A stretch of 64,000 nucleotides of DNA from a bacterium. Its GTDB lineage: Bacteria; Armatimonadota; Zipacnadia; Zipacnadales; Zipacnadaceae. Positions 25,454 to 43,900 of this stretch are shown piece after piece. Under the pieces are notes generated by a model. That model did no database searches. It was not told where the DNA came from and was given only the letters and a program-made list of their open reading frames with translations. Made by a program: the position numbers and the translations under genes. The first letter of the stretch is position 1. Every line of letters begins with the position of its first letter. Where the stretch lies: contig JAUWYY010000005.1 of assembly GCA_030615605.1 (NCBI GenBank), positions 43,682-107,681 on the forward strand, given 5' to 3'.

Positions 25454-25481
25454 ATAACTCGGCTTATAGATTCACTTTCCG
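25454..25481 (+). repeat. 28-bp motif ATAACTCGGCTTATAGATTCACTTTCCG (copy 1), ~135 nt upstream of integrase
   Basis: Second copy at 36328-36355 differs at one position (T to C). Both precede paralogous integrase genes in the same orientation. Confidence 0.7.
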
Positions 25482-25616
25482 GCATTTTGGGCTATTTCGC
25501 CAGTATTATGGCCTCACTGTGAGGGGACATAATCCAGACTTATAGCCCGGTTAGCTCTTCCTCGCTGCAACCTCGTATCGAGCCAAAACACTAACCGAAA
25601 GGATGTGTGATGGCGC

Positions 25617-26510: not shown

Positions 26511-26683
26511 TGGGTCAATGAGAGTAGTGGTGCTGATGGGAATAGGTGAGCTGAAAGAGAAGATGGGCAGAGCCGGTGCGTGGTGTCAATGCGCCTTGGG
26601 CTACGATGCAGGAGACTACCCCATGTGTGAAGCCAATGTAACCGATTATTGTTGCGGTCTGCTGGGCGTATACGATTGCAGTT

Positions 26684-27082
26684 TCAGAGACTCTGGTGCA
26701 GGATATGGGAGAAACGGTCGAACATATGGGGGAGATAGAAAACGAGGAACAGGATAGAAAAAGTTAGGAGCAGCCAGATCATACAACCGCAAATGGATAT
26801 AAGAATGCCCTTTAGCGCCAACCTACTATTTTCGCCGGTACGGTGGGATTTAACACCGGTCCATATCGCAAATGGTGCGACAAGCGGGCAGAGCAGAGAT
26901 ATGAAAGCCAGCACTACGGACCAGATGGCCCAGGTTTCCCGTTGTACAGGTGGAGCAGAGTAGGGAGGCTGGGCGTGGGTGGGTTGCTGTCCAGCAATGA
27001 CAGATGGGCCGTGTGAGATGCCAGGCTCATTGGTAATGTAGACTTCAGCGCCACAGTGCGGACAATTGTGTGACTCGACCAT
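26684..27082 (-). CDS. Small membrane protein with N-terminal zinc-ribbon (CPHCG) and DUF4190-like TM region
   Basis: CPHCGAEV zinc-ribbon start. Pro/Gln-rich linker. Two TM helices. Confidence 0.45.
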   Translation of the reverse strand: MVESHNCPHCGAEVYITNEPGISHGPSVIAGQQPTHAQPPYSAPPVQRETWAIWSVVLAFISLLCPLVAPFAIWTGVKSHRTGENSRLALKGILISICGCMIWLLLTFSILFLVFYLPHMFDRFSHILHQSL

Positions 27083-27286
27083 GAACCTTCACCATTCGAT
27101 CAACAGAGATAGGTATTGTGCATGTTAACAGCTACGTCCTGGTTACTTCTCTTAAGTATAGCCATTTGGCTATGCGCGTGAAACACGGGCAGCGGAAATG
27201 ATTGATGCAGGGCAAGAATATCAGATGATAAATGCAGTAGCAAAAGACACGAGGAATCTCAGTCCGCGGTTCCTTCCAGATGGGTT

Positions 27287-28219
27287 CTAGGTTGTGGCGG
27301 CAGGTGGGCGCAAGCAAAAGTCAACCGCGACTGCGGCTCGTTGTATCTCATCGAGATCATAGTTGAGGTACAGGATGGTGGTTTGCAGCTGCTCGTGACC
27401 GAGAAGTATTTGGACCTGGCGGATGTTGAGGCCGCTCTCCAGCCAGCGTTTGGCGGCGAAGCGGCGCAGGCTGTGGAGGGTATAGTGAGAATCGGTGAGG
27501 CAGGCGGCTTCTGTCCAGTGTCGGAACCAGCGGTTAAGTGTGCTGAGACACAATGATCCTCCCTGGCGGCCTCGAAACAGTGGGCCGGTGTGGGGGAAGT
27601 GTTGCTCGGCATGGAGAGCGTAGATGGCCGGGAGAAGGTCGTCGAAGATCAGTACCTCGCGTTGCTTGTCACCCTTGCCATGGATACGCAGGCGGCGGTT
27701 GGGAAGATCTGCGTCATTCCAGGTGAGGCCAAGAAGCTCAGCGCGGCGCAGGCCGCTAGTGGCAAGGGTGAGCAGAACAGCTCGTTCGGTGAGGTTGCGC
27801 GTCGCGTCAAGCATGGTCTGGACCTCCTGGGGGGACGGGCAGGTAGCGATGCGGCGGCGCTTCTTGGGGCGGTGTACGAGGTCAATGGGATTGCTGGAGG
27901 CATGGCCGAAGCGAATGGCCCACTTGAAGAGACCTGATAGTGAGTTGAGGGCGCGGCGCACCGTGGCGTCGGAGAGATGGTGCACGGTGGCGATCCAGTT
28001 CTCGACCGTCGGGGTGTCGATGGTGGCGAGTGGACGCTGGGGGTCGCTGTCGAGAAAGCGGGCGAAGCGCGCGAGGTCCAGACGATAGGCCGCGATGGTG
28101 CGGGGTGAGCGCCGCGCGACCTTCTGCAGGTAGTCAAGATACAGGCTGATCGCCTCAGTCATCCTCACGGTGATCACCTCGCTCGTGGGCTTGGGCAGGC
28201 CAAGTCCCAAGAGTATCAC
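27287..28219 (-). CDS. Tyrosine recombinase / integrase
   Basis: HSLRRFAAKRWLESGLNIRQVQILLGHEQLQTTILYLNY catalytic C-terminus. Last gene of a three-gene minus-strand operon. Confidence 0.9.
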   Translation of the reverse strand: MILLGLGLPKPTSEVITVRMTEAISLYLDYLQKVARRSPRTIAAYRLDLARFARFLDSDPQRPLATIDTPTVENWIATVHHLSDATVRRALNSLSGLFKWAIRFGHASSNPIDLVHRPKKRRRIATCPSPQEVQTMLDATRNLTERAVLLTLATSGLRRAELLGLTWNDADLPNRRLRIHGKGDKQREVLIFDDLLPAIYALHAEQHFPHTGPLFRGRQGGSLCLSTLNRWFRHWTEAACLTDSHYTLHSLRRFAAKRWLESGLNIRQVQILLGHEQLQTTILYLNYDLDEIQRAAVAVDFCLRPPAATT

Positions 28220-29300
28220 CGGGACTTGGGTACAGTTTTGAGTGGTTTTGTTGTGATTGGGTTTCGTTGTGCTTAGCGATTAGGTCGACAACGGATTCGG
28301 CTCTCTTGTGTGGAATGAGTCTCCCTGGGGGTGTGAAACGCGGGTCGGGAGGCCAGGCTATTTCGAGCGGAGGGAGGTCTTCTATGTCGGCGAGGGCGCG
28401 GGCGAGGCCTGCCTGGGCGGCTTCGCGGAAGTAGCGGTTGACGGTATGACGTGAGAGATCAGCCTCGTGAGCGATGGTCTGTTTGTCGCGTTCCTGGTTG
28501 GCGCACAGGGCACCATAGATTTTCATGACTTTGGCGGGTTTGTAGTAGAGGCCGAGTTGCCGGAGGGAGCTATCCCTGGTGGCAAAGCGGCAATTGAAGA
28601 TGCCAAGGTGTTGCATGTCACGGCGTAGGATGTCGAGCACTGGCTCGCGAGCAAGATCGCCTAGTCTGACGGGTTTTGGAGCGCGAAGAGCTGCGGCTGT
28701 GGTGTCGGTTTTGTTGTAGTTACTCTCGTGGCGGAGGGTTCCAGGAGGGGGAGAGACTTCGCGAGGGAGGCGGTGGTGTTTGGCCTCCTGGAACTTGTCG
28801 TAATACTTGGTCTTGGAGGAGACGGAGCGGTATTCGACGCCAGTACCCATGAATGGTACGGTCTGGCGGCGGGGGTATTCGAGTGTGTTGAGGGCGCGCA
28901 GGTAGTGGGGAAGTGCGTCGCCCACGAAGTAATTGTAGCAAGCGTCGATGCGCATGAGCTGTCCGTCCGCGGCAGTGGGGATGTATGGGAGGGCCGGGCA
29001 GTCGTGGAAGAGGGCGTCGAGCGCGGCAATGGCCGTGGGGATGTCAGGTATCATCGGCCAGTTGTATCCGTAGAGAACTCTGGGCAAGGACAGCTCAATC
29101 CAGAAAAGCGGGTTGCCTTGCCAATCTATGGGGCGGTAGGTGGCTTTGAGGGGGATGCGGTATATTTTGTCTGGATTGTAGACGAAGAAGCTCTCGATGT
29201 CGCCGGATGCGAGGTAGGTAGTGCCCTTCTGTTCCCATCCAGCACGGAAGTGGTCGTCAGTGGGCTGCACGTCGAACTTGAGTCGGACTGAGTCTATCAT
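28155..29300 (-). CDS. Hypothetical protein (element-associated; possible replication-initiation-like function, unverified)
   Basis: 381-aa ORF with coding-like composition. Its 3' end overlaps the integrase start by 65 nt. No motif I can assign with confidence. Confidence 0.5.
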   Translation of the reverse strand: MIDSVRLKFDVQPTDDHFRAGWEQKGTTYLASGDIESFFVYNPDKIYRIPLKATYRPIDWQGNPLFWIELSLPRVLYGYNWPMIPDIPTAIAALDALFHDCPALPYIPTAADGQLMRIDACYNYFVGDALPHYLRALNTLEYPRRQTVPFMGTGVEYRSVSSKTKYYDKFQEAKHHRLPREVSPPPGTLRHESNYNKTDTTAAALRAPKPVRLGDLAREPVLDILRRDMQHLGIFNCRFATRDSSLRQLGLYYKPAKVMKIYGALCANQERDKQTIAHEADLSRHTVNRYFREAAQAGLARALADIEDLPPLEIAWPPDPRFTPPGRLIPHKRAESVVDLIAKHNETQSQQNHSKLYPSPGDTLGTWPAQAHERGDHREDD

Positions 29301-29399
29301 CTTCTTCTCCTTGTTATGGGGCGGAGCACAGGGTGCTCTTTGGTGTTGCGGTTGAGCATATCAGGAGAAGAAGTGAGCGGGGTGTAACTTAAGGAGCGG

Positions 29400-30260
29400 C
29401 TATGTTTCCGGGTTGTTTTCGGGGGTGTTTTCGGCGGGTATGGTGCGGCGGAGCCAGTCTCGGTAGTTCTGGAGGTTTTTCCGAATGGTGTCGGCGTCCG
29501 TGCGAAGAGCAGCCTCGTACTCGGGCGAGACGGTGTCGAAGTCTGGGCGAGGGCGAAATCCTAGTTCATAGGAGATGTCGGCGAGGTGCATGTGAATGTT
29601 GTGTCTGGCGTGGTCTGAGAGCCGGAGAATGCGGTCGCAGGCGTCCAGCCAGCCGGTCTCGGTGATCAGGTCGGGGCCGCGGCGGCGCTGGGGTAAGTCA
29701 AACGTCTCTTTGCAGGTATCGCGGAACTCTGTGAGAAGCGTGTCGAGGTCGGTGGCGGCGGAAGCAACGGCTATTACCATCAGCTCGCCGTCGATATCGG
29801 AGACGCAAACGCCTCCAAAGATCATGGGGATTGGGGCGGGGACCTCAAGGAAGCCGGTGACGATGTGACGCGAGAGGGCCCGGCCGACTGCGATGGGGAA
29901 GTTGTCAAAGTCTAGGGCGGGGCGAAGAGCCTCGATGATGGAGGGGATAGTGTCCTGGGGGCCCGTGGGCGGCGGCGGGGATGGCTGTGAGAGGAAATCG
30001 GGAAGGCCAGGCGAGTCCTGGTCGAGGTCTTCGGTCAAGGTACGAAAAGCGAAGTCACAGGCTTCGGCCTCGAAGTTCTCGGGCGGGTGGTGTTCCAGGT
30101 TATAGCGAAGACCATCGAGGGTCTCGGCTGGGACGATATCCTCCCGGTCGCGAATGGATTCGACGAAGCGTTGGTATTTCTCGCTGGATATGAGGCGCCA
30201 GGTGATGGCGTCGGCGAGTTTGTCGGGCGCGCCTATGAGTTCGGTGTCGAAGTCGCTCAT
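29400..30260 (-). CDS. Hypothetical protein (acidic, Pro-rich linker), first gene of integrase operon
   Basis: 286-aa ORF co-directional with and upstream of 28155-29300. No recognisable domain. Confidence 0.45.
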   Translation of the reverse strand: MSDFDTELIGAPDKLADAITWRLISSEKYQRFVESIRDREDIVPAETLDGLRYNLEHHPPENFEAEACDFAFRTLTEDLDQDSPGLPDFLSQPSPPPPTGPQDTIPSIIEALRPALDFDNFPIAVGRALSRHIVTGFLEVPAPIPMIFGGVCVSDIDGELMVIAVASAATDLDTLLTEFRDTCKETFDLPQRRRGPDLITETGWLDACDRILRLSDHARHNIHMHLADISYELGFRPRPDFDTVSPEYEAALRTDADTIRKNLQNYRDWLRRTIPAENTPENNPET

Positions 30261-30663
30261 GATAGGTAAGAGAAAAGGTCCTCGATGTAGTGGGGCAGCA
30301 GTCGCCGATATATTCTTCGCGGCGGGTAGGATTCCTTTGGTGTGGTTGGGAGAAGGTTAATGGTGAAGGTGTCGAGGGGGTTATTCATGGCCGATGTTCT
30401 GCACTTTCTGCACCTCAGGTGAGTGCTGGTGTGATCGAATTTGCTGTGACAAGCTCTTGGACAGGTTAAGTGGAGAGGAGGTTCTCAGCAGGCGGCGAAA
30501 GTGGAGAACAGCGGCGGGCCGGGACAATTGACAGGAACCGGGGGACCAGCGTACACTGGGGGTAAGTAGCGGTGACGTTGAACGCTGCCATAGTGGCACC
30601 CGCCGAAGGCAGAGGTCCGACGGCGAAGGAATAAACGTAGTCGACGGAACGGGAGCCCGGCCT

Positions 30664-31806
30664 ATGTCATACGAGTCCGTTGATGCTCTGCAAAAGTTGC
30701 TATCCGAAGAAGTGTTTCACTATGCCAGCGACAAGAAAAAGGCCGCCGGTAGGGCACTAGGGACCATTGTTGAAATTATTACCTACTATATCTTGCGCAG
30801 TTGGGGGCTTCGAGATTGTGTAGCCATAGAGACGCGACTTCCCGAGTTCGCAAATCCTGAGATCAGTCATAATGTTGAATTTTCTCTCCACCCAATCATT
30901 GCGACCCGCTCCGTCGAGTTTGATGCAGTACCTCCGATCACTGCGAAGAAGATTTGCAGGCAAACGTGTATCACTGCCGATGATCAGCTGAGCAGTAGCA
31001 AGAGTACTCAGCTGCTGAGCACAGATGGACTGCTAAGGAATTCCTGCTCTGTTCTAGATGTACCGATAGGTTCGTACGTTGCGCATTTGGATTCATTCTT
31101 GGATGGGAAATGCTGTATTACGCTTTGTCTTCACGATGCGCACCCTTACGCAGTTGTTGAGTGCAAGCGCGTGGGGGTGGAAGAGGGTATGAAGAAGGGA
31201 CCTCAGACTATCGAGAAGGCGAAGCAGGGCGCATATGTGGCAAGTAGGGTGTCGAGCGTTCAGAAAATCAGATTGAGAGACGGCACTCTGGGCGGTGTCG
31301 TTGAGAAGGTGAATGGAACACTTCTCTACGAAAAGAGATACGACGACCTTCGAAAAAGGATCATGGACTCAGATGTGTCGGAACTGCTGAGGGGGTTCAT
31401 TCTTACAGTAGGTGTTGTGAGCAATCACGGAAATTGGTTTACTTCTGGCGATCAAAATAAGGAGCTCAAAGTCCTATCCCAGTCGTATGATTGGTTGATC
31501 TTCTTGACAGATACAGGACTGGTGCAGTTCATCAATGACCTATTGATGGACACGGTGGCAGAGCTAGAGTCAGCCCGAGATGCTTTCCAGCGAAGCTATT
31601 CGGAGGGTAAAACGAAGAACAGGTTTACAAAGGTCAGAATCGACTGTGAAGCTGATGAGGGAATGCAGGCATATTTTGCCCGGAACTCAGAAAAGGTTGA
31701 GACATGGTTCAATGTGATCGCGCCAGAATCACAAACACTTGAAGTACTGCGAACAGAACTTGATGCATTGAGTAGAAAGGATTGGAGGCGGATTCATTCG
31801 TTATGA
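30664..31806 (+). CDS. Putative type II restriction endonuclease (PD-(D/E)xK candidate), cognate of the downstream MTase
   Basis: GC clearly lower than flanks. Candidate catalytic motif LHDAHPYAVVECK (D...E-x-K). 25-nt overlap with the downstream adenine MTase gene. Confidence 0.4.
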   Translation: MSYESVDALQKLLSEEVFHYASDKKKAAGRALGTIVEIITYYILRSWGLRDCVAIETRLPEFANPEISHNVEFSLHPIIATRSVEFDAVPPITAKKICRQTCITADDQLSSSKSTQLLSTDGLLRNSCSVLDVPIGSYVAHLDSFLDGKCCITLCLHDAHPYAVVECKRVGVEEGMKKGPQTIEKAKQGAYVASRVSSVQKIRLRDGTLGGVVEKVNGTLLYEKRYDDLRKRIMDSDVSELLRGFILTVGVVSNHGNWFTSGDQNKELKVLSQSYDWLIFLTDTGLVQFINDLLMDTVAELESARDAFQRSYSEGKTKNRFTKVRIDCEADEGMQAYFARNSEKVETWFNVIAPESQTLEVLRTELDALSRKDWRRIHSL

Positions 31807-32390
31807 CAGCTGGGCGAAGCGCGAACTCATTGAGCCAAGATTGGGGCACTCCTAAGAAATATGTGGATGCCGTGAAGAAAGTTTTCGGGGGAGTGATTGA
31901 CTTAGACCCGTGCTCTAATGAGCATTCGGTCGTTGGAGCACAAACAGAGTATTGCCTCCCAGAAAAGGACGGACTTTGCGAATCGTGGTGCTTTGGGCGG
32001 ATATACGTTAATCCTCCTTATGGAGCGGACCGTGAAAGAGGGACAAGGATCAGTAACTGGTTGTCTAAGTGTGCGGAGGCCTACAGAGCACATGGGTCAG
32101 AAGTTCTGGCGCTAGTCCCAGTGGCCGCCAATACTACTCACTGGAAGAAATATGTGTGGGGGTGCGCAACAGCGGTCGCCTTTCTCTATGACACGAGATT
32201 GAAATTCTTGATAGGTGGGGTAGAGAACGGGAAGGGAGCACCGATGGCTTGTGCAATGGTTTACTGGGGAGGTAATTACGATAGATTCTTCGATGTCTTC
32301 ACTATGTTTGGGGCGGTCGCTGACTTGCGACCACTGAAGGGAAAGAGGATTGGTGGACGTGACTTGGCTCTTCCGGCGCTGGCGCAATAA
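31782..32390 (+). CDS. DNA N6-adenine methyltransferase, phage-type Dam (PF05869-like)
   Basis: DWGTPKKYVDAVKKVFGGVIDLDPCS...GRIYVNPPYG. The DxWxTP...LDPcs...NPPY family signature. Confidence 0.8.
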   Translation: MEADSFVMTAGRSANSLSQDWGTPKKYVDAVKKVFGGVIDLDPCSNEHSVVGAQTEYCLPEKDGLCESWCFGRIYVNPPYGADRERGTRISNWLSKCAEAYRAHGSEVLALVPVAANTTHWKKYVWGCATAVAFLYDTRLKFLIGGVENGKGAPMACAMVYWGGNYDRFFDVFTMFGAVADLRPLKGKRIGGRDLALPALAQ

Positions 32391-32719
32391 CGCACGAAGT
32401 GCAACATCCAGTGTAGTGTGGTTATTGGGGAGGACTTCCAGTGGCGAGCAAGGATGACTACGAGCAGGTGGGTGGTTGGGTAGGGGCGGGGGTGAGGGGT
32501 AGAAGCGAGGCCTCGGGGGTAGTGCGGCAGCAGTGGGTGGTGTATTCGTTGCGGGGCGTAGGATTCCGTTGGCGTGCCGGGGAGAAGATTAGTGGTAGTC
32601 GGTGGGGAAATGTCGTGGCCTAGTCTATGAGGGGGAGGCTCGTCGGGATGATGCAAGAGGTAAAGCGCTGGTTAGGGTGTCCGTTGCGCCGATGAGGGGG
32701 AATATAGATTGGGTATGGG

Positions 32720-32935
32720 TTAGGCAATCCTCGCATATGGGTAACCGGCCTTCTTGATGTGCTGGTCGAGGTAAGTGCCTTTAGAGGAGGCGCTTAGAAG
32801 ACCTAAGTGGTGGGCTTCGGGGACGCCAATATATTGGTAGACAGCTCCCGTTAGGAACATGATCTCCAGAGTCTGGGTTTGAGGATCGTAGCCGACTTCA
32901 GCTAGGTTAGAGGAAGAGACAGGCATGCGGTCCAT
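32720..32935 (-). CDS. KTSC domain protein
   Basis: VSSSNLAEVGYDPQTQTLEIMFLTGAVYQYIGVPEAHHLGLLSASSKGTYLDQHIK matches the KTSC pattern. Confidence 0.6.
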   Translation of the reverse strand: MDRMPVSSSNLAEVGYDPQTQTLEIMFLTGAVYQYIGVPEAHHLGLLSASSKGTYLDQHIKKAGYPYARIA

Positions 32936-32947
32936 TTTCTGTTCTCC

Positions 32948-34711
32948 TTAGGATGTGGACTGGGTACGCCAGGCTGTGACAGCTTGGTCATAAGGGGTTG
33001 ATGCCTCCGGGTTGGTGGCCCACGCCGCGATGACATCAGGATCAGTGCTCTGGGGGCGTGGTTCAACGAGCGGGAAGCGGACTCTTGTTGGAATCTGAAT
33101 GGCTTCGCCGCTGACGACGGCCTCTCCGGTGCGGAGGGCCGGGAGGAGGTCGACGAGGGCGGTCAGACCCTCGGGAAGAGTGGATCGAATTCTGGCTCGG
33201 TCATCGGAGTTGGATAGACGTAGGGCGAAGAATGTGCCGCACTGCGAGAGAAGGGTTTCGTCGATCTCTGCGGGGCGTTGAGTGACCAGTATTGCGCCGA
33301 CGCCATACTTGCGACCCTCCTTTAGGACGCGCTGAACTGCGCGCCTTGCATAGCCTGTGACTGACTGGACATCTGATCGTGGGAGATACGAGTGGGCCTC
33401 CTCGTAGACTAGGACGATGGGTCGCTGGCGGCCGATGCCCGGCAGATTTCGGCCCCAGAACATGCCCTCAAAGAGTATGCGGGTTAGTGTGCTCACTACG
33501 AGGTCGATAACCTCAAAGGGGACGCCAGCGAGGTCGAAGACGGTGATAGGGTGAGTATGTCCTATCCAGTCTTGGAGAAGGTGATGGAGGTCTTTGTTGT
33601 GACCATCGTACTGCGTGGGGTTGAGAAGGAAGTCGAAGCGACGGTCTTTCAGGCGGCCAAGTATCTTGCTGACATATGATGACATGGGAGTCTGGATGGC
33701 TGGCTTGTACGGGGCTGCAGAGCCTGCTCCTGGGGGAGTAAACGTGGCCGAAATCAGAGTGGTGGCATCTCCCTCGCTGACTAAGGCTTCTTGCGAGCGT
33801 GGCATGTCGAGGTACGTGACGCGCTCTGCTCGGTCTAAAGCGTACCAAAGCTCGCGGATATCAAAGGGGATAGGTGAATCAACAGTGATCTCGTCTGGGC
33901 TTACGGCACCGGCTGATAGGGAGTCGGCGCGGGCGCGCTTGGCCTGGAATATGTGCTCCCGAAGGATGACGTCCTGTAGCGATTCTGAAGTAGTCTTCCG
34001 TTCAACGAGGAACCAGGAGAGTTCGTCAAAGGATAGTGCCCAGTAGGGGATGAGCAAAGGGTGTTGAGGGTCACGGATGCGATAGACGCGACTGTAGCCT
34101 TGGAAAGCACTCGCATACTCGCCATGCGGGTCGATGACGAGGAAGCGGGCGTTGGGGTAGGTAGCGGGGTTGACGGCTGTCAGAAGGTTGGCGACGGCGT
34201 TGGACTTTCCAGCGCCGGTTGCGCCCACGATACATAGATGTCGTGTCACAATCTTGTTCAGGTCAACTCTCGCTGGTAGGGATTGCGAGGCAGCATGGGT
34301 GCCTACGATGATGTGGGATGGTCCCTGCGGGGGATAGATGGTTGCTGTGTCTTCTTCGGTGACGACGTGCACCTCGTCATCAATGGTGGGAAAGATGCTG
34401 ATTCCTCTTTGGAAGGGGTCGCCGGAGTAGGATTCGCCAACTAGCTGGACCTCTATCCAGCGTTGGCCGGTTGGGGGAAGAGGCGGCGCGCTTTCGAGCA
34501 CGTCAAGTTCGGAGGCGCCGACCATGGATACAATGCCATAGAGGTTGAGGTAGCCTATGGGGATCCGAACGAAGGAGCCGATTTGGCCGAGGCGGTGGAG
34601 TCTTCCGCCAATGATGGGGCTGGCTGAGGGAATCTGCGGTGACAGTTCGATGAAGATTCTCGCTCCGACGACACGACGAACGATCCCTAGGAAGGTTGGG
34701 TCAGTCTTCAT
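32948..34711 (-). CDS. herA: HerA-like (DUF87) ATPase of SIR2-HerA antiphage system
   Basis: Walker A HLCIVGATGAGKSNAVANLL. Walker B IVLVYEEAHSYLP. 4-nt overlap (ATGA) with the upstream SIR2 gene. Confidence 0.8.
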   Translation of the reverse strand: MKTDPTFLGIVRRVVGARIFIELSPQIPSASPIIGGRLHRLGQIGSFVRIPIGYLNLYGIVSMVGASELDVLESAPPLPPTGQRWIEVQLVGESYSGDPFQRGISIFPTIDDEVHVVTEEDTATIYPPQGPSHIIVGTHAASQSLPARVDLNKIVTRHLCIVGATGAGKSNAVANLLTAVNPATYPNARFLVIDPHGEYASAFQGYSRVYRIRDPQHPLLIPYWALSFDELSWFLVERKTTSESLQDVILREHIFQAKRARADSLSAGAVSPDEITVDSPIPFDIRELWYALDRAERVTYLDMPRSQEALVSEGDATTLISATFTPPGAGSAAPYKPAIQTPMSSYVSKILGRLKDRRFDFLLNPTQYDGHNKDLHHLLQDWIGHTHPITVFDLAGVPFEVIDLVVSTLTRILFEGMFWGRNLPGIGRQRPIVLVYEEAHSYLPRSDVQSVTGYARRAVQRVLKEGRKYGVGAILVTQRPAEIDETLLSQCGTFFALRLSNSDDRARIRSTLPEGLTALVDLLPALRTGEAVVSGEAIQIPTRVRFPLVEPRPQSTDPDVIAAWATNPEASTPYDQAVTAWRTQSTS

Positions 34712-36075
34712 TTGGGTGCCTCGTCATCTCCTGGTGGTGGGGGAGTCGGGGGCATTGGTGGCTCTGGTGGAGACGAGTGGACAGTGACTGACGAGCCGAG
34801 AAAAGAGGCCAGGTACTGCGCGAACTCCGAGAAGTGGCCAAGGGTGAAGACACCGGATGGGGGGCCTTCGGCAGCGGGGGGAGCGTTCAACGGGGGTTCC
34901 TGGGGGGAGTGCCAATCTCCTTTTACGGTGCCGACGTAAGCGTTGATTGGATCATACACGGTGAGGTTCCGATGCTGTGAGGCGTGGCGGGCGAGGGTGG
35001 GGGTAGCTGGGTCGTGGAGCAGGACCGTAACTGCAAGGCTGGAGTTCGCGCGTAGGCATTGGAGTATGATCTCGTTGATGTGCTGATCAGCAAAGCTATA
35101 TCCAGCGACGATGAGAAGGACGTCTGGGATCAAGAGCAAGGTGCGGAGACGGTCGTGGTATGCCACGAATGGCAGTTTGCGTGAGTCGGAGTACTTCTCG
35201 TGGGACGGAAATATGATGTATTCGTCGGCTTCAGTGACAGTGTCAAGGGGAGCTCGGGCAATGCGATGGGAGTCGTCGAGCTGGGTCTTGACGCGTCGCC
35301 AGCCGATTGAGCCATGGAGCTTCCACAGACGAACCCAGGTGCGGGGCACCGCAGATATATCTGTGCCGAGTCTGGCGTCAGCTTCCACGGTGGAGGGGGC
35401 GAAGAATGGCTCGACGGAGCCAACGAAACCGTCGAAGAAGTAGGTACCAACGTCTTCCATGGCCATTTCGAGCAGAAGGTCGTAATTGGTGGTAAAGACC
35501 TCGATAGGGTAGTCTCTGGGGATGGTACGTAGCCATTGTGCGAAGATTCGCTGGGGGAGGGAATCTTTGGGAGGGGGCTCACTGAGGATCTTAGCGATTG
35601 ACCTGCATATCTGGCGGTCGAGGGGGCAAGCATGCGGACAGGCCAGGGCGGTGTCTGTGGCAGACATTCCAGGGTCGCCATGAGCGGCGCAGATTCGCCC
35701 GCTATCGAGAGAATCGGGAGTCATTGGCGAGACGATCTCGCGGCAAAGACGGATGCGGGTCAGTGCGGCCTCTATGTTGGCATCCGGTCCAAGGCGTTGG
35801 AGCAGATCGGAATAGATGGCAAGCCAGGGAGGGGAAAGCTCCTGTGGAAGCCTTTGGGTGAGTTGGGCCATTCCTGGCATTCCGACGGCCATGGAGGTTC
35901 CGGCGCCGAGCAGGAAGGCGATTCGCCGCTTGTCGGAGGCAAGCTGTTCTCTGAGTTCGGACCTCTCGCGCGCAGGGTCATAGATGAGCCGGTTGGTCAA
36001 TGGAGGCCTCCCCGTCGGATGAGGTACGGGACGTTGGGCTGGGGTGTAGGCCGAATGGATGTGACGCAGTGTCAA
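34708..36075 (-). CDS. SIR2-family (SIR2_2/DHS-like NAD-binding) protein of SIR2-HerA antiphage system
   Basis: IAFLLGAGTSMAVGMPGMAQL (GAGxS...G.P motif) and VFTTNYDLLLE (TTNYD motif of SIR2_2). Confidence 0.75.
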   Translation of the reverse strand: MTLRHIHSAYTPAQRPVPHPTGRPPLTNRLIYDPARERSELREQLASDKRRIAFLLGAGTSMAVGMPGMAQLTQRLPQELSPPWLAIYSDLLQRLGPDANIEAALTRIRLCREIVSPMTPDSLDSGRICAAHGDPGMSATDTALACPHACPLDRQICRSIAKILSEPPPKDSLPQRIFAQWLRTIPRDYPIEVFTTNYDLLLEMAMEDVGTYFFDGFVGSVEPFFAPSTVEADARLGTDISAVPRTWVRLWKLHGSIGWRRVKTQLDDSHRIARAPLDTVTEADEYIIFPSHEKYSDSRKLPFVAYHDRLRTLLLIPDVLLIVAGYSFADQHINEIILQCLRANSSLAVTVLLHDPATPTLARHASQHRNLTVYDPINAYVGTVKGDWHSPQEPPLNAPPAAEGPPSGVFTLGHFSEFAQYLASFLGSSVTVHSSPPEPPMPPTPPPPGDDEAPK

Positions 36076-36327: not shown

Positions 36328-36355
36328 ATAACTCGGCTTATAGACTCACTTTCCG
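36328..36355 (+). repeat. 28-bp motif ATAACTCGGCTTATAGACTCACTTTCCG (copy 2), ~170 nt upstream of integrase
   Basis: See copy 1 at 25454-25481. Confidence 0.7.
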
Positions 36356-36523: not shown

Positions 36524-37468
36524 GTGCAAAGCATTATAGACACACTTGCTCAGGAATTCCTGCTCTACCTGCAGGCCGAGAGGGGCTGCAGCCCCCTTAC
36601 CGCCACGTCTTACCGCTCCGATCTGACACAATTGTTCACACATTTGCAAGAAAGCTACGGGGTGGATGAGCCTGCGGAAATCACTGTGGAAATGGTCCGG
36701 TCGTGGATCGTTGCCATGTACGAACGCGGGCTGTGCAGCAACAGTGTGGCCCGTAGGGTCTGTTCGCTGAAGAGCTTCTGGAAGTATCTGTGCGAACGGG
36801 ATCTGGCTGCACCAGAGGTCGTAGCGAGAGTCAGCACGCCGCGACGGGAGAAGACGCTTCCGACTTATCTCAGCAAAGAGTCGTTGCAGAAGCTGCTAGA
36901 TGCAACTCTGCAACAACGCACTGAGTATTGCGCTTTCCGTGACTATGCGATAATGGCCACGTTCATCTACGCGGGCCTACGGCGGGGCGAGCTGCTCAAT
37001 CTTAAAATGGGCGATGTTGATCTAGGCGCTCGGACACTGCGTGTTGTGCGCGGAAAGGGGAACAAGACGCGTATTATTCCGCTGGTCGAGGAGCTGGAGG
37101 AGGCGATTGCTGATTGGCTAGAGTACCGCCGCACCAAGGGGCACGATTACCTGTTCACCACCAACCGGGGCAACCGCATCTACCCAAGCCGCCTGCAGAT
37201 CATCTGGAAGAACATCCTTAACCGGAGTGGCATCAACCGGTCCGGCGTGAGCATGCATACGTTGCGGCATTCTTTTGCGACGCTCCTGCTGCAAACTGGT
37301 AACGCTGATCTGGTCTCCATCCAGCATCTGCTTGGCCACAGCCGACTGGACACGACGGCCATCTATCTGCATGTCGATGCCCAGCAACTGCGTGAGGCAA
37401 TCACGGCGCATCCGCTGTCTAGCGCAAGCGGAGGCGCACAGCCAAGTCGCTCAGTACAGAGCTTATGA
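36524..37468 (+). CDS. Tyrosine recombinase / integrase (paralog of 25617-26510)
   Basis: LYLQAERGCS, RVVRGKGNKTRIIPL, HTLRHSFATLLLQTGNADLVSIQHLLGHSRLDTTAIYLHV. Collinear similarity to the 25617 integrase. Confidence 0.9.
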   Translation: MQSIIDTLAQEFLLYLQAERGCSPLTATSYRSDLTQLFTHLQESYGVDEPAEITVEMVRSWIVAMYERGLCSNSVARRVCSLKSFWKYLCERDLAAPEVVARVSTPRREKTLPTYLSKESLQKLLDATLQQRTEYCAFRDYAIMATFIYAGLRRGELLNLKMGDVDLGARTLRVVRGKGNKTRIIPLVEELEEAIADWLEYRRTKGHDYLFTTNRGNRIYPSRLQIIWKNILNRSGINRSGVSMHTLRHSFATLLLQTGNADLVSIQHLLGHSRLDTTAIYLHVDAQQLREAITAHPLSSASGGAQPSRSVQSL

Positions 37469-37573: not shown

Positions 37574-38149
37574 TCACTCCATCTTCCTAATGCAAGCGGT
37601 ACACCTTTCCTCGCCATCAATGAACCATCGCTGGCAGGGCACGTCGGTCGCCGTGTCGCCAAAGATGAGTAAGAGCCCGTAGCGGTATCCGAACTGTCCA
37701 CAGCGGCTGGTGAAGCGCTTGAGTTTGTCCTCATCTATTGACATGCTATCGGGGTGGCACCGTTTCTTGGCCTCGATCACCAGCAGGTTGTGGCTGGTGC
37801 ACCTGCGGTGGACGATGATATCAGGATAAACCGTCTTGGCCTCTACGTCATCTGGCTCCAGACATTTGTACTTGGCTTGCGAGCATTCGTATTCTCGGCG
37901 CAAGCGCTTAATCTGATCGCCGTCCCTATTGTACTCGCAGTCTACATCCCAGTCGGGGAAGACCTTCTGCAGATGCTCGCCAAGTTTGTGGGTGATAGAC
38001 CGCTCGTTCGCGTCGACGTGGATCAGGTCTTGGTCATTATTGAGGAACCGCCCGAGTGCTTCGTCAACGCGTTCCGCCACCTCTTCACCCGATGGATACT
38101 GTGGGTCTGCTTGCTCCCGATTTGCCATGCGCGTCGCCTCCGGTGCCAC
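37574..38149 (-). CDS. Small PD-(D/E)xK nuclease-fold protein (putative)
   Basis: VYPDIIVHRRCTSHNLLVIEAKK (PD-x13-E-A-K) preceded by an acidic helix. Confidence 0.45.
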   Translation of the reverse strand: MAPEATRMANREQADPQYPSGEEVAERVDEALGRFLNNDQDLIHVDANERSITHKLGEHLQKVFPDWDVDCEYNRDGDQIKRLRREYECSQAKYKCLEPDDVEAKTVYPDIIVHRRCTSHNLLVIEAKKRCHPDSMSIDEDKLKRFTSRCGQFGYRYGLLLIFGDTATDVPCQRWFIDGEERCTACIRKME

Positions 38150-38159
38150 AAGAGTGCCT

Positions 38160-38262
38160 ACTTCGTCTTTGCCGCGTCTCCCATCCGGTACTTGATGTCG
38201 TAGTTGATGATGAAGTCCAGCTCCTCAATGGCGTGGTCGGTGGCGCTTATCTGCCGCTACGT
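38160..38262 (-). repeat. Degenerate copy (DR-A) of the 3' end of the type IIG R-M gene
   Basis: Directly after the TAG stop of the 467-aa ORF, in the same frame, it encodes RQISATDHAIEELD..., cf. QIAATDQAIDKL at the C-terminus of the 40921-44022 gene. About 36 nt of nucleotide similarity (TCAATGGCNTGGTCGGTGGCG). Confidence 0.5.
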
Positions 38263-39660
38263 GCGTGTCAATTGAGTGTAGACGTGCGCAAGTAAGCCAA
38301 CAAGCCGTGTGAGAAGGTACCGCTGCAGCTTCCGATAGTCGCCAGGCCCATGAGGCATGGCCTTGCCAATGCACTGGCTAAAGAACTGAGTGAGCCTAAC
38401 CATCTTCTCCTCAGCACCACTATCATGCTCCACATCGTGGCGATAGAAGTTGTCACGTAGCAGCCTGACTTCATCGTTGACAAAGTCTTGATGTTGAGCA
38501 TCCAGCAAGCTCCATAGAAGACCTTCCTTCTTGCCCCCATCTTCCCACAGCAGGAAATATAAATAATCTACTACCTCGCCAAGAAGCTTCTCTGTCGCCG
38601 CTATAATGCCAGGGAAAGCTGCGATTATACTCATGAACTTCGAGCTGGCACCGAATATGGGTTTCTCCCCGGCAAATCTGGAAGCTCTGTCACAGTCGAG
38701 GATCAATGCACGCACTTGTAGCCCCAATGCCAACTCTGTTTCGTACGGGAGATCTGCCAAGAGTTCTTCTGCATCGATCTGAATACCACGTTCGGCGATT
38801 CGATCGTGTATCTCGGTCCGCTGGACTTGCAGGATGTTATAAGTAGGCAAGGCTCCCACAAAAGGTCCGGAAATGCCCGTTTCTGGATCGTACAGAGTCA
38901 GTGCTTCAAGGTTGCTCGCGCATACTATGCTCGTTGCAGAAGAACTAGCGACTATTCCTGCGCTCGCCCGAACAGTCGCGATCTCATCACCTTCGGCTTC
39001 TTCCTCTTCTATGCGGTAGCGGTTAGCAGTCTGCTCGAACATTCTTGGGGGCTGCAGCAGAACCTCGTGAAGTAAGTCACTCCGCGGAATGTCAAACTGG
39101 GCCAATGAGGCCCTAACTGCAGGGCCCATTGCGAGAGCAGCCTGCGCTGCTTCGGCAATCGCTAGGCTCTGCCCTAGCGCTGCGGCCCGTGTCTTATCCA
39201 TTCGCGCCGACCAAGACAGCAGCGGCGCCATGGACGCCGACACCGCTGCAGATTGCGTTATGGCCGTCTGCATGATCGAGGCCGATTGTTCTTCCAGTCG
39301 CTGGAGGTGCTGAAGATATGATCCTGACACGACGGACGCCAATGATATGGACAACATTACAGATTGGCCTATGGTCACCTCCATCATCCGGTTAGACTGT
39401 TCTTCCATATGCTGAAGGTGCACACCCCATGATTGTGAGAACAACGAGGTTCGATCAATGGCAGCCACAATGGATGATAGGTGGTCCTGCCGCGCTGCCC
39501 ACGCCGCCGTGCGCGCCTCCATTAACGAGTATATATGTGACGGCGAGTAGCCACCCAGCACCCGACTCAGCCCTTCGAAAGATGCCATCCGGGCTTGGAG
39601 TCCTTCGATCGCCTCAAGCTCGTCCTGGTCATCATCTGTCTCGTTGCTCATATCTATCAC
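38257..39660 (-). CDS. Hypothetical protein with internal Gln/Ser-rich helical repeats
   Basis: 467-aa ORF. Tandem approximate repeats HLQHMEEQSNRMMEVTIGQSVMLSISLASVVSGS / YLQHLQRLEEQSASIMQTAITQSAAVSASMAPLLS. No assignable domain. Confidence 0.55.
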   Translation of the reverse strand: MIDMSNETDDDQDELEAIEGLQARMASFEGLSRVLGGYSPSHIYSLMEARTAAWAARQDHLSSIVAAIDRTSLFSQSWGVHLQHMEEQSNRMMEVTIGQSVMLSISLASVVSGSYLQHLQRLEEQSASIMQTAITQSAAVSASMAPLLSWSARMDKTRAAALGQSLAIAEAAQAALAMGPAVRASLAQFDIPRSDLLHEVLLQPPRMFEQTANRYRIEEEEAEGDEIATVRASAGIVASSSATSIVCASNLEALTLYDPETGISGPFVGALPTYNILQVQRTEIHDRIAERGIQIDAEELLADLPYETELALGLQVRALILDCDRASRFAGEKPIFGASSKFMSIIAAFPGIIAATEKLLGEVVDYLYFLLWEDGGKKEGLLWSLLDAQHQDFVNDEVRLLRDNFYRHDVEHDSGAEEKMVRLTQFFSQCIGKAMPHGPGDYRKLQRYLLTRLVGLLAHVYTQLTRT

Positions 39661-39747: not shown

Positions 39748-39843
39748 TCATGTTTCCGCTGCTTGGACCATCGCGATCTCCTCGTCGGTCAGCTCGTACA
39801 GCTCATGGATTAGCTCATCAATGGCCTGGTCGGTGGCGGTTTA
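39748..39843 (-). repeat. Partial copy (DR-B, ~88% nt identity over ~70 nt) of the 3' end of the type IIG R-M gene
   Basis: Encodes TATDQAIDELIHELYELTDEEIAMVQAAET* immediately after a TAA, cf. ATDQAIDKLVYELYELSDEEIAIVEGQT*. Overlaps the last 8 codons of the FGE-domain gene in another frame. Confidence 0.6.
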
Positions 39844-40885
39844 CAGACTCAGGCTTGGGCGTGTAGACGCAGCGAAACCCGACGGAGTTGTTGCTATATT
39901 TGGGTGGGGGATGGTGTTCGCGGTTTGTCGTGCGGCACTCATCTTCTCCGTAGAAACAGTTGCCGCCCCGGACGACGCGGCCCTCGCCCTGGAGACGTCC
40001 CCGAGGGTCTTGCACGGTGGCTTCGCTGTCGGGGTAGTCGCCAAACCAGTCTTCGCACCATTCCATGAGGTTTCCGGCCATGCCCAAGGCTCCGCGCCAG
40101 CTTGCACTGTCTGGGAAGGAACCGACAGGACTTGTATACGTAACCTCCGTTTCGTCCCAAGAGTCACCCTCCTCTACGTACTGCTTCCTTTCCCAGTGCC
40201 ATGCTCGGCCTTGATTCTCGCTGCAGCAACACCGAGTCGCGTCCCAACAGTCGCCCCACGGGTATATTCTTCTCTCCGGCCCACGAGCGGCCCACTCCCA
40301 TTCCGCCTCTGTGGGCAGACGCAGGCCATAGTACTCGGCGTAGTCGTGGGCCGCCTGCCAGGTCGCTCCGACAACGGGGTACTTGTCGCGGTCTTCCAGC
40401 GTTCGGTAGTGCCCGCTTTCTAGCACAATATCGGACGGTTCGCACATCACAACGGGGTCAATTCTGGCTCGGTTGTGACCGCTCTCAATGAGCTTGTTCA
40501 GATACTGTGCGTACTGCGTGTTAGTAACGAGACACTTCATAAGCCAGAAGCCATTGGAGATGCATACCTTTTGAGTCGGTCCACCCCCGGGCTTGTCGTC
40601 TCCCATTAGGAACTCGCCATCTGGCACCCAGACCATGGACGCAAGCGTCGGGCCAGCAATTACCTGACCCAGCTCCCCTGGGGTGCGCCAGAGGTGGCCC
40701 GACGGCCCATTCGCTGCGCCAAGGCCTCGCCGCAAAGCCTGGCCCGCTCTGCGTCTCGCTCGGCGCGCATTCCACCATCTGCTGAGCCGTGTCTCGACTG
40801 GCCCCGACACCCGACGCTTGAAATCGCTCCACAGCACTACCAATAGACTGTTGTCCTTTATTTCCACCTGATCCCCCTCCTTCAA
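39818..40885 (-). CDS. Formylglycine-generating enzyme (FGE/SUMF1)-sulfatase domain protein
   Basis: GATWQAAHDYAEYYGLRLPTEAEWEWAARG...GNLMEWCEDW...RVVRGGNCF. Matches the PF03781 pattern. Confidence 0.75.
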   Translation of the reverse strand: MKEGDQVEIKDNSLLVVLWSDFKRRVSGPVETRLSRWWNARRARRRAGQALRRGLGAANGPSGHLWRTPGELGQVIAGPTLASMVWVPDGEFLMGDDKPGGGPTQKVCISNGFWLMKCLVTNTQYAQYLNKLIESGHNRARIDPVVMCEPSDIVLESGHYRTLEDRDKYPVVGATWQAAHDYAEYYGLRLPTEAEWEWAARGPERRIYPWGDCWDATRCCCSENQGRAWHWERKQYVEEGDSWDETEVTYTSPVGSFPDSASWRGALGMAGNLMEWCEDWFGDYPDSEATVQDPRGRLQGEGRVVRGGNCFYGEDECRTTNREHHPPPKYSNNSVGFRCVYTPKPESVNRHRPGH

Positions 40886-40920: not shown

Positions 40921-43900
40921 CTACGTCTGTCCCTCCACTATCGCAATCTCCTCGTCGCTCAGCTCGTACAACTCATAGACCAGCTTATCAATGGCCTGGT
41001 CGGTGGCGGCTATCTGGCGCTGGAGGCGCTCGCGGCTGCGCGGCGTCTTGACCTGGGCCAGGCGCTTGTGCAGCTCCAGCATCGTCTCCACCAGCTCAAC
41101 CATCTTATCGTGCCGCGCCACATCCGCCGGGTCATCAAAATCAATCGTGCGGATGGGAAGGCGCTTAACGTATCGCGGCTCATATGCAAACCAACCGCCC
41201 TGAAACCGCGAGCTGATCTTCTGGAGATAGAAGGTAAGAACACGTGAATTAAGGACACCGAGAACGTACATTGTGAGCGCCTTGTCGGCGATGACGATCC
41301 CCATTCCACCACCAGCCCCCTGCGGGAAATAGAGCCCAGAGTCGTCGAGCGCGAACGCATTGGCTGGTGCGAGTGTCGGAGTTACGATTTTCGTAGATTC
41401 GAACATCATCATAGACGAACTGAAACTCAAGCCATACCAAGCAGGCCCCTTCATCTTGCCTTTTTCTCGTCGTTGGAGTTTGGATTGATTGTCACGGAGG
41501 CGCTGCCAAATCTCTGGCGCACTTGCCTTGACGGTCGCTTCCGGCAGTAAGGTAGTGGCACCACCCTCAAGTGCATACGGATAGATCAAGTGCCTAGCAC
41601 TAGGACCGACATAATAGCGTTTAAGGCTTTCAGCCTTAAGGTATTTCTTGAGACAGCTACTACCTTCTTCACGTGTGGCCATTATTCCAATTCCGTTCGG
41701 AATCTCTCCCGCCTCTAACACGAACACGTCATTGGCGCCTGTCTTAACACCCGTGATCATTTCCGAAGCGAGAGCAGGCAGTGGCTGGCCAATCTGATCC
41801 AGCTTCTGGCAGAGGTCTTGTTCGTCCCTATACCCGAGCGTCCATGGCCCAGTGCCCAATCGCCCGACGTCTATCTCCTCTATACGCCCGCCGCCGAGTA
41901 GTGTCTGCGGTGTCTCGTCTCTCGGATTGAACTGTGCTAGGAAAGAGTCTTGAGGAGAAGGCGTTGCAAATACGAGGCATGTGTATGATGTTGCGCCCTC
42001 GAAGACCTGTGCTGCTTGGAAGTCAACTATGCGCTGCAGGCCGCACTTTTTGGTCAAGAGTTGACGCAGACCCACACCATAATCAGCCTGTAGGAATTTA
42101 TTGGGGACGATGAAACCCATTTGGCCATTGGACCTGAGGACCTGCAGGGCTAATTCAATGAATGCAACGTAGATGTCAACCTTGCCAAATATAGCCGATC
42201 TGAAGTGCGTTTGAATGTAGCGAACCTCGGTTGGGTAGAAGTCGACAAGTCTGTGTATACGAATATACGGCGGATTACCGATGACGCAGTCGAAGCCGCC
42301 GGCGGACATTATCTCGGGGAACTCCGCGTCCCAGTCAAAGGCGTTGACGCGGCGGGCCTCCTCCTCGTCAATCAGTGCAAGCTGCCTCCCCTCATAATAG
42401 TCCGGCCCGATGAGACTGTTGCCACACTTGATATTATCGTCAATATTGGGCAGCACCCGCTCCTGGGCCAGTTGCAACTGCCCGCTGAGCGTCTCCTCGG
42501 TCTCCCCCTCCATACATTTGAGCAGCAGGTTGAGCTTGGTGACCTCCACGGCCTGCGAGTCAATATCCACACCAAAGATGTTGTTGAGCAGGATGCGCTT
42601 GCGCTCGAAGGTGGACAGCCGCCATTCGTTCTCGAGCACCTGGATAATGGCCGGCTGCGGGCCACGGGCATGCTTCCTGGGGCTATGGTTGGTGTAGTAG
42701 TCCAGGTGCCAGTTGAGCAGATACTGGTACGCACCCAGCAAAAATGAACCGGAGCCACAGGCCGGGTCGAGAATGCGCAGCTTGCTGGCCGCTTCCGGCG
42801 TCTCGGCCTCTTCCAGCGCCGGGCCGACGGTGTGCTCGACGATGTAGTCCACGATGTAGGTGGGTGTGTAGTAGACGCCACCGGCCTTCTTGACCTCGGG
42901 CTTCTCCTCGACTTTGGCGCGGTGGCTGGGGGTCAGGCGAATTACCTTGCCCAGGAACTGCTCGTAGACAGCCCCGAGGATATCGGCACCCAGCACGGAG
43001 AACTCATAGGGGCACTGCGGATAGTAAAGCTCGGCCAGAATAGACTGCAGAGCCTTGTCGGAGACCTCCAGTTCGGGCGTCAACTGATCCCCGCTGGAGC
43101 TGAAGTCAAACAGCCCGGCGTTATACTTGGTATCGGCCTGCTGGTAGAGCTGGCACAGACGCGGGTAGAGACCCGTGCCGTCCAGCAGGTCGCGCAGGCG
43201 ACCGTACGGCTCAACGCCCCGGTCTTCGGCAATGCGAAAGAACAGGATGCGGTCAATAGTGGTCTGGACGGCGAAGTTCAGGTCGTGCACGGACAGGTCA
43301 AGGTTGTGGCGGGCGATGTCTTTGGCCAGCATCTCCCGCCACTGCTCAATCTCCTGGAGGAACTCCGAGTCAACCTCGGTGGTGCCACGCTTGCGGCGTG
43401 TGCCTTCGGCATAGCGGTCAAAGGACCCCTTCAGTATCGCCTCTTTGGCGAAGATCGAGTAGATGTCGTCCAGGCGATCGACGTATTCATCATAGGTTAT
43501 GAAGTCAACCCGAGCCACGCTGGGCCCATCTGCCTCCTGAGGCCGCTTGCTGCAGTCGTAAACCGCGAATTCCTCAAAGTCAGTCAGGATGGACCGGGGC
43601 AGCTTCGCACTCCAGCCGTAACGGCGAAGCTGGTAGGCCGGCGAGGGATCGGTCTTTATGTGCACCGAGGGCTTCTTTGCTTCCAGGAAGAACTTGCGCT
43701 GGCCGCCGATGCGGAAGCAGTAATCCGGCGCTTTGGTGGCACCCCGGACCTTGATGGCGTCCTCGTGGATAACTTCCTTGTAGGGCTCGGCATAGCCCTG
43801 CTCGTTGGCAATATCCCAGCCCAGCGCCTCAAAGAAGGGGTCAATGAACTCCTGCCTCAGTTGCGCTTCACGGTACGAGACAGCAGCATACTGGTCAGCG

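Follow-up and report, generated by a model that had tools for sequence, protein, structure and literature searches.

Background

Phage protection, NAD+ depletion and the assembly of SIR2 and HerA proteins into a supramolecular complex are known from homologues in Paenibacillus and Escherichia coli (PMC11472057, PMC13434337). Complex formation activates both SIR2, as an NADase and a nuclease, and HerA, as an ATPase and a helicase (PMC11472057). The same structural study, of the Paenibacillus sp. 453MF system, named N163, D165 and H212 of SIR2 as putative catalytic residues and described residues 576-696 of HerA as a 'C-terminal arm domain', which folds in trans around the RecA-like domain next to it, 'especially' through the alpha19-20 helices and their linker, and stabilises an unusual split-spiral hexamer (PMC11472057). 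Diverged SIR2-HerA lineages are treated as separate subtypes in a 2026 classification paper (PMC13434337). Here we analysed a 64,000-nucleotide (nt) stretch of DNA, hereafter referred to as the window, from a bacterium of the family Zipacnadaceae (Armatimonadota; GenBank assembly GCA_030615605.1, contig JAUWYY010000005.1, positions 43,682 to 107,681). Its minus strand carries, at 32720-36075, three co-directional and tightly packed open reading frames (ORFs), which encode a SIR2 protein, a HerA protein and a small KTSC-domain protein in that order. A sequence-only reading of the window had recognised the first two genes as an antiphage defence pair of the Nezha type and had taken the third for a possible accessory or anti-defence factor. 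The comparisons reported here leave us highly confident that KTSC is a genuine conserved component of the SIR2-HerA clade to which this locus belongs. They also suggest that the locus is probably a three-gene abortive-infection operon of the Paenibacillus sp. 453MF type, in which KTSC would serve as a detached distal arm that binds the HerA ring.

Lineage of the SIR2-HerA pair

The SIR2 protein matched Pfam SIR2_2 (1.7e-15, 57.8 bits against a cut-off of 24.5) and the PADLOC profile PDLC04093 (9.3e-103), and the HerA protein matched DUF87 (4.3e-35, 122 bits) and HerA_C (3.8e-07) together with PADLOC PDLC04105 (6.1e-156), the latter end to end (residues 3-586). We found the SIR2 motifs GAGTS (residues 57-61), TTNYD (195-199) and KLHGS, which contains H254, as well as the Walker A and Walker B motifs of HerA (Table 1), and alignment placed N197, D199 and H254 of SIR2 opposite N163, D165 and H212 of the Paenibacillus protein. 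The pair shows every sequence element of the two-gene SIR2-HerA definition used by PADLOC and DefenseFinder, namely both domains, the Walker motifs, adjacency, co-direction and the Asn/Asp/His residues. These results bear out the antiphage pair that had been proposed from its motifs, including the PADLOC assignment and the catalytic residues on which the proposal had been made to depend, and the ATGA overlap of 4 nt between the two genes is likewise as first described.

We further ranked homologues by searching the window proteins against all PDB sequences. The closest solved structures were in both cases those of Paenibacillus sp. 453MF: SIR2 matched 8w9l at 3.1e-46 (window residues 31-423 against chain residues 9-369), and HerA matched 8wiv at 1e-134 (5-584 against 11-603). 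In contrast, E. coli Nezha (8j4u) was matched at 1.8e-13 over the core of SIR2 and at 2e-33 over the C-terminal half of HerA. The NCBIfam anti-phage equivalog models were missed by wide margins (SIR2_antiphage, 81.5 against a cut-off of 500; HerA_antiphage, 162.9 against 800; HerA_antiphage_2, 266.2 against 850). The close, full-length homology of both proteins assigns the window pair, as judged from sequence, to the Paenibacillus sp. 453MF-type clade. Because Nezha is distant, the Paenibacillus proteins are close and the equivalog cut-offs are missed widely, the label 'Nezha-type' is wrong for this pair and we abandon it.

The likeness to the Paenibacillus system (8w9l, 8wiv, 8wj3, 8wld and 8wof; Liao et al. 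2024, PMC11472057) extends to the catalytic Asn/Asp/His residues, the Walker motifs and the overlap of the SIR2 and HerA genes. Unlike its Paenibacillus counterpart, the window SIR2 carries an insertion of ~45 residues (about 104-150) and a proline-rich C-terminal tail. With E. coli Nezha the window pair shares, by homology, the logic of a SIR2 NADase combined with a HerA ATPase in abortive infection, whereas the homology itself is only distant and the Nezha chains gave no KTSC match. DUF4297-HerA and other HerA-effector systems (8xau, 8ziq, 9c1m) possess a homologous HerA motor (about 1e-58 to 1e-61) but a different effector, and their solved chains, to which this comparison was confined, likewise gave no KTSC match.

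An alternative start codon of SIR2, TTG at 36000, lies 6 nt after GGGGAGG and coincides with the onset of homology to the solved SIR2. For both of these reasons it is probably a better candidate start than TTG 36075, and its use would yield a product of 430 amino acids (aa). A scan for promoters and terminators detected sites no more numerous than in shuffled sequences, with none beside the ends of the operon.

KTSC and the HerA arm domain

The 71-aa product of the third gene, which lies on the same strand 12 nt downstream of HerA as originally reported, matched Pfam KTSC (PF13619; 3.7e-23, 81.5 bits against a cut-off of 25) over profile positions 1-57 of 58, and no PADLOC profile matched it. 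Among PDB sequences it retrieved 4rgi (1.4e-14), 7x8c (5.3e-11) and residues 630-696 of the Paenibacillus HerA 8wiv (1.1e-10). The Paenibacillus HerA comprises 696 aa, and the window HerA ends at the equivalent of its residue ~603. Since the window HerA stops there and the KTSC protein matches residues 630-696, the window KTSC gene encodes separately what the Paenibacillus HerA carries as its C-terminal domain.

Structural comparison agreed with this correspondence. An AlphaFold2 (AF2) model of the window KTSC built with 46 homologues reached a predicted local distance difference test (pLDDT) score of 95.9, and Foldseek superposed it on the KTSC crystal structures 4rgi and 7x8c with template modelling (TM) scores of 0.92-0.94. 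The same model matched the C-terminal domain of HerA (8wof, 8wld, 8wiv and 8wj3) with TMq values of 0.85-0.88, a root-mean-square deviation of 1.2-1.4 A over about 70 columns and 44-45% identity. The domain is modelled in the HerA chains of all four entries, and therefore the KTSC fold is ordered in the cryo-electron microscopy (cryo-EM) maps, both for HerA and for its complex with SIR2. The term KTSC is absent from the structural paper, whose authors did not identify the arm as such and described the module only as the 'arm domain' of a 'two-gene' system (PMC11472057). A KTSC-fold module corresponds to the C-terminal end of the HerA unit in both systems; in Paenibacillus it is fused through a 26-residue linker, whereas in the window it is a separate product.

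We numbered helices in order along the AF2 model of the window HerA (pLDDT 76) and compared them with the numbering of the paper. This count reproduces the published long alpha7-alpha8 loop (298-343) and places alpha12, alpha13 and alpha15 in the RecA-like domain. The window HerA retains the proximal arm helix (residues 574-582), and the KTSC part of the arm is encoded apart. Because the HerA core ends at alpha17 in this numbering, the KTSC fold probably supplies alpha19-20 as its two helices, with the linker between them holding the invariant residues S51 and G53. The helix-linker-helix stretch spans residues 40-61 of the window KTSC.

The statement that KTSC is not a described component of SIR2-HerA systems therefore needs to be divided. 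No paper found in our literature search names it as such; its domain, on the other hand, equals the C-terminal 67 residues of the characterised Paenibacillus HerA, where it was described as the arm, and the coupling of HerA and KTSC genes is mentioned in one sentence of PMC9503650. The window protein also resembles the stand-alone KTSC proteins of Yersinia pestis (YPO2434, 4rgi) and Methanolobus vulcani (7x8c), both PF13619 members, in fold and size, and shares the conserved motifs YxY and S-x-G with them. Those two proteins have no assigned partner or function, whereas the window KTSC has an operonic partner and a structural counterpart within a solved complex.

Recurrence of KTSC beside HerA

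We next asked whether KTSC genes recur beside SIR2-HerA pairs, a check suggested by the sequence-only reading. Our census covers the 80 best genome loci, collected from HerA, and 80 metagenome loci, collected from KTSC, and so not all HerA clades. The genome scan was queried with a 25-sequence HerA alignment, and KTSC was detected by phmmer with the window protein. The resulting 80 HerA loci (41-63% identity) were distributed across Proteobacteria, Bacteroidota, Bacillota, Acidobacteriota, Chloroflexota, Omnitrophota, Patescibacteria, Spirochaetota and other phyla. In 77 of them HerA was followed directly, on the same strand, by a KTSC ORF, and hence in 77/77 informative loci, as the other three (L011, L055 and L078) reach a contig end within 40 nt of the HerA end. 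KTSC was a separate gene of 68-81 aa in 76 loci, spaced -29 to +30 nt from HerA (median 8), and many copies were preceded by GGAG-type ribosome-binding sites. In the remaining locus (L075) it was fused to HerA in a 714-aa protein with the junction ...WRRQSPIVSKQLNTDKMEHF.... A SIR2 homologue was found upstream in all 78 loci with upstream sequence. E. coli PA45B (NZ_CP021288.1, 2861792-2865079), a Sulfitobacter plasmid and Nonlabens each carry an annotated triad, without a system name.

The three proteins also diverge together. Across 58 complete triads the mean pairwise identity was 44% for KTSC, 42% for SIR2 and 52% for HerA, and KTSC and HerA distances were correlated (Mantel r = 0.60, p <= 5e-4; r = 0.95 for SIR2 and HerA), which supports purifying selection on KTSC and its co-inheritance with HerA. 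Moreover, the 120 best-scoring HerA homologues in a collection of 5.8 billion proteins were all 587-623 aa long, i.e. unfused, and ten long HerA representatives, including P0216 (642 aa) and P0232 (684 aa), showed no KTSC match, so that the HerA-KTSC fusion is rare. As a separate observation, a Geobacter metagenome-assembled genome carries a second KTSC ORF (~358 aa, with KTSC at its C-terminus; L005, 5233-6309) directly after the first KTSC gene.

Proposed role of KTSC and alternative explanations

By homology to the Paenibacillus system, the HerA hexamer, an ATPase and helicase, would dock onto a SIR2 ring, and the activated complex would deplete NAD+ and block phage replication, resulting in abortive infection. 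KTSC would be translated separately from its own ribosome-binding site and would bind at the outer edge of the HerA ring, where its helix-linker-helix face would contact a subunit's RecA-like domain; we place it there because the fused domain occupies this position in the cryo-EM structures. Once bound, it might stabilise or gate the HerA assembly. That KTSC acts as a HerA-bound subunit at the site of residues 630-696 seems to us fairly likely. Its binding to HerA in trans, the exact contact surface and the functional consequence are all points that we infer from this comparison.

Several observations weigh against this reading. The KTSC-centred metagenome scan returned 80 loci with 49-68% identity, of which 71 had enough upstream sequence to be informative. 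HerA lay directly upstream of the close KTSC relatives in only 24 of these, other contexts making up 47/71, in a set that was collected with 12 closer sequences (alignment A3) and is biased, as to the other contexts, toward the DxxIKKAG subtype; residues that seemed specific to a context, and the assortativity of nearest neighbours, were set aside for this reason. The nearest relatives of the window protein, which are cyanobacterial or from Chloroflexales, are themselves a mix of HerA-linked and other contexts. Because close relatives also adjoin Old, PDC-S06, SMODS and unrelated genes, a single HerA-specific docking surface cannot fully explain KTSC. Finally, the assignment of alpha19-20 to the KTSC helices depends on a helix count in an AF2 model and not on coordinates. 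Taken together with the HerA-centred census, HerA of this clade practically always has KTSC, and KTSC is not exclusive to HerA.

The 47 other contexts were enriched for defence genes. KTSC directly follows genes for Old-type ATPase-TOPRIM nucleases in four loci (L155, L156, L157 and L160; PADLOC Old, about 1e-55 to 7e-67) and a PDC-S06 (AAA_13) gene in L085/L086 (PADLOC 5.7e-264), it directly precedes SMODS nucleotidyltransferase genes in L087 and L088, and a type IIG-like methyltransferase is another neighbour. A family of 342-aa proteins is encoded directly after KTSC in about ten of the SIR2-HerA-KTSC loci and 4/4 Old-KTSC loci, with 63% identity across the contexts (Table 1). It matched neither Pfam nor PADLOC, its motif GDIVC...IVIECKFDK is possibly PD-(D/E)xK-like, and the window contains no member. 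Among the 24 HerA-linked loci, L150 encodes a 699-aa fusion of DUF87 and KTSC. We also considered L083/L084 as a HerA-KTSC locus with a non-SIR2 effector, as its called genes encode 269-aa and 151-aa proteins without Pfam matches, and rejected this candidate: SIR2 is frameshifted and has TPSYD in place of TTNYD. At 1787-3096 of L083/L084, SIR2 is split over two ORFs and apparently decaying, beside intact HerA and KTSC genes.

These contexts give substance to the main rival explanation, in which KTSC would be a generic sensor or adaptor of several defence ATPases and would relay a phage-derived cue, either a protein or a nucleic-acid end, to the ATPase next to it. The idea overlaps with a HerA-bound subunit and is compatible with it. 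Besides the Old, PDC-S06 and SMODS neighbours, it can draw on the 342-aa protein encoded after KTSC whether the neighbour is SIR2-HerA or Old, and on the description of KTSC as nucleic-acid binding by Iyer et al., which is given with no data behind it (PMC9503650, PMC7824862). However, the only available structures show the domain as an ordered part of the HerA ring with no ligand added. Unlike typical DNA or RNA binders, moreover, the KTSC proteins linked to HerA are acidic on average (mean net charge -3.1, median pI 5.0), which fits a protein-binding module better than a nucleic-acid-binding role. On balance, we consider the sensor or adaptor role rather unlikely, and retain the HerA-bound subunit as the preferred explanation.

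Matches to KTSC were found in 16/50,697 phage records. In Providencia phage PSTNGR2lys (MW145137.1, 25064-25276; L168, 4001-4213) an unannotated KTSC ORF, 59% identical to the window protein, is situated between the lysis module and the terminase module, antisense to an annotated hypothetical gene, and a Flavonifractor phage carries a copy adjoining a Lar-like gene. Such phage copies, and the position of a small gene at the close of a toxic-effector operon, are what could be expected if KTSC were an antitoxin-like or anti-defence brake holding SIR2-HerA off, as had been entertained in the sequence-only reading. The fusion of the domain into the defence-competent Paenibacillus HerA (PMC11472057), and also into L075 and L150, is at odds with a brake, as are its retention in all 77 informative loci across phyla, the rarity of phage records with a match, and the lack of any PADLOC or anti-defence annotation. 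We consider a brake very unlikely and drop the anti-defence proposal; as a domain that can form part of a defence-competent HerA protein and that persists in the operon from phylum to phylum, KTSC is a component rather than an inhibitor.

A further possibility is that the split is mere damage, a fused herA-KTSC gene having acquired a nonsense mutation, or is bridged by programmed read-through of the stop codon. In the window the KTSC ATG does share the HerA frame, with a single TAA in between (...WRTQSTS*GEQKMDRMP...), and in-frame arrangements of this kind are, on their sequence, one substitution away from an L075-like fusion. But with the window counted, frames 0, 1 and 2 of KTSC relative to HerA occur 29, 17 and 31 times, overlaps of 1-29 nt cannot be read-through, 76 loci are split against one that is fused, and the lengths of the 120 best HerA homologues and the AAGGAG and ATG of the window KTSC itself tell the same story. 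Both forms of this explanation are highly improbable, and the frame and gap statistics rule them out as a general account. That KTSC is an unrelated passenger, common in many contexts and beside the pair by chance, is refuted by its conserved position in 77/77 informative HerA loci across phyla, at a median gap of 8 nt, with divergence tracking that of HerA and with natural fusions, and we give it practically no weight.

Genomic surroundings of the operon

A Dam-like methyltransferase pair converges on the operon from one side, and an integrase gene on its other side is transcribed away from it. Two copies of a 28-nt direct repeat, 27/28 identical, bracket a 10.9-kb integrase-bearing cassette that contains the SIR2-HerA-KTSC operon (Table 1). 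No such repeat is expected by chance, the flanks of the two copies are unrelated, and each copy precedes a tyrosine integrase gene of the plus strand (25617-26510 and 36524-37468) by ~135-170 nt. The repeats look like att-type ends, as of a mobile cassette that is integrated or in tandem. Three tyrosine recombinase/integrase genes occur within 12 kb, at 25617-26510 (+), 27287-28219 (-) and 36524-37468 (+), with Phage_integrase matches of 1.3e-37, 7e-26 and 2.7e-38, and mark the region as a mobile defence island. From about 25000 to 36000 the plus strand shows a very strong positive GC skew (0.16-0.34 per kb) regardless of gene strand, which coincides with the cassette; right of about 37 kb the skew is ~zero or negative. 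No tRNA genes were found in the window.

Convergent with the KTSC gene, a 380-aa ORF with a marginal REase_II match (0.0013) at 30664-31806 (+) overlaps the gene of a Dam-family N6-adenine methyltransferase at 31782-32390 (+; Pfam Dam 1.1e-14; PADLOC orphan MTase), and the two are a possible small type II restriction-modification pair. On the right side of the island, all on the minus strand, we found a PD-Lambda-3_A homologue (37574-38149; PADLOC 1.3e-37), a 467-aa ORF (38257-39660) for which Pfam, PADLOC, NCBIfam and PHROGs gave no match and which could be the partner of that homologue, an FGE-sulfatase-domain protein (39818-40885; 3.9e-47), a type IIG restriction-modification enzyme (40921-44022; PADLOC REase_MTase_IIG 8.9e-243) and an HD-CE domain protein (46538-47845; 2.4e-47). 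Stretches of 45-73 nt from the 3' end of the type IIG gene are repeated at 39767-39851 and 38214-38258 (families D1 and D2), and each copy overlaps the 3' end of the adjacent minus-strand ORF.

Table 1. Coordinates of the operon, its motifs, the flanking repeats and the 342-aa family. Positions refer to the window unless a census locus is named.
Feature	Position	Strand	Remarks
SIR2-family NADase effector gene (predicted)	34708..36075	-	455 aa from TTG 36075; Pfam, PADLOC and PDB 8w9l matches
TTNYD motif, SIR2 residues 195-199	35479..35493	-	putative catalytic N197 and D199; aligned with Paenibacillus SIR2 N163 and D165
Codon of putative catalytic His254 of SIR2	35314..35316	-	within KLHGS; aligned with Paenibacillus SIR2 H212
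ATGA, SIR2 stop overlapping HerA start	34708..34711	-	read from the sequence; putative translational coupling
HerA-family hexameric ATPase/helicase gene (predicted)	32948..34711	-	587 aa; ends just past the proximal arm helix, ...AVTAWRTQSTS
Walker A of HerA, GATGAGKS, residues 163-170	34202..34225	-	G163, T165, G166, G168, K169 and S170 invariant (HerA alignment A1)
Walker B of HerA, VLVYEEAH, residues 433-440	33392..33415	-	E437, E438, A439 and H440 invariant (HerA alignment A1)
HerA TAA stop and 12-nt spacer	32936..32950	-	spacer 32936-32947; KTSC ATG in frame with HerA
AAGGAG Shine-Dalgarno sequence	32944-32949	-	8 nt upstream of KTSC ATG
KTSC-domain gene	32720..32935	-	71 aa; stand-alone counterpart of Paenibacillus HerA residues 630-696 (distal arm domain)
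28-nt direct repeat, left copy	25454..25481	+	repeat sequence of the two copies, ATAACTCGGCTTATAGA(T/C)TCACTTTCCG
28-nt direct repeat, right copy	36328..36355	+	27/28 identical; 253 nt beyond SIR2 start, 169 nt before integrase 36524-37468
342-aa family member, locus L082	5212-6240
342-aa family member, locus L157	5222-6253
342-aa family members, loci L014, L015, L019, L022, L027, L065, L071, L150, L163, L155, L156 and L160

Conclusions

The SIR2-HerA system itself is known, and its split three-gene architecture is close to unrecognised. To our knowledge, KTSC is not part of the DefenseFinder definition of SIR2-HerA. As a separate third component it is also absent from PADLOC, from the structural paper (PMC11472057) and from the 2026 classification paper (PMC13434337). 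Our literature search found no paper linking KTSC to SIR2-HerA, no paper on PDB 7x8c and no function assigned to the KTSC domain (PF13619). The only anticipation found is one sentence, marked 'LA, unpublished observations', on the coupling of a HerA-like ATPase with KTSC (Iyer et al. 2022, PMC9503650). The variant mentioned there shares with the present loci the HerA-like ATPase/KTSC gene coupling in a conflict system; unlike them, as we read it, an endoDNase replaces the sirtuin and no data are given, whereas a sirtuin is present in every informative locus here.

SIR2-HerA has been catalogued, cloned and modelled as a two-gene system, and three genes are the usual state in the Paenibacillus-type clade, the Paenibacillus model system being the exception in which the third gene is hidden as a fusion. 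Reconstituting an unfused member from SIR2 and HerA alone may therefore omit a subunit, and the PADLOC and DefenseFinder rules could add KTSC as an accessory gene. Old and PDC-S06 are single-gene catalogue entries. We can only tentatively suggest that KTSC is a general partner subunit of otherwise unrelated ATPase- or nucleotidyltransferase-based anti-phage systems (SIR2-HerA, Old, PDC-S06 and SMODS), with a common function in assembly, gating or trigger sensing and sometimes accompanied by the 342-aa nuclease-like protein. If this were true, many catalogued systems, among them two-gene SIR2-HerA, Old and PDC-S06, would be incomplete as defined and cloned. For the KTSC domain, the ordered position on the HerA ring in deposited cryo-EM maps provides a first concrete molecular context and makes its function directly testable, and its presence next to genes of Old, PDC-S06 and SMODS type hints that it contributes more widely to bacterial immunity.

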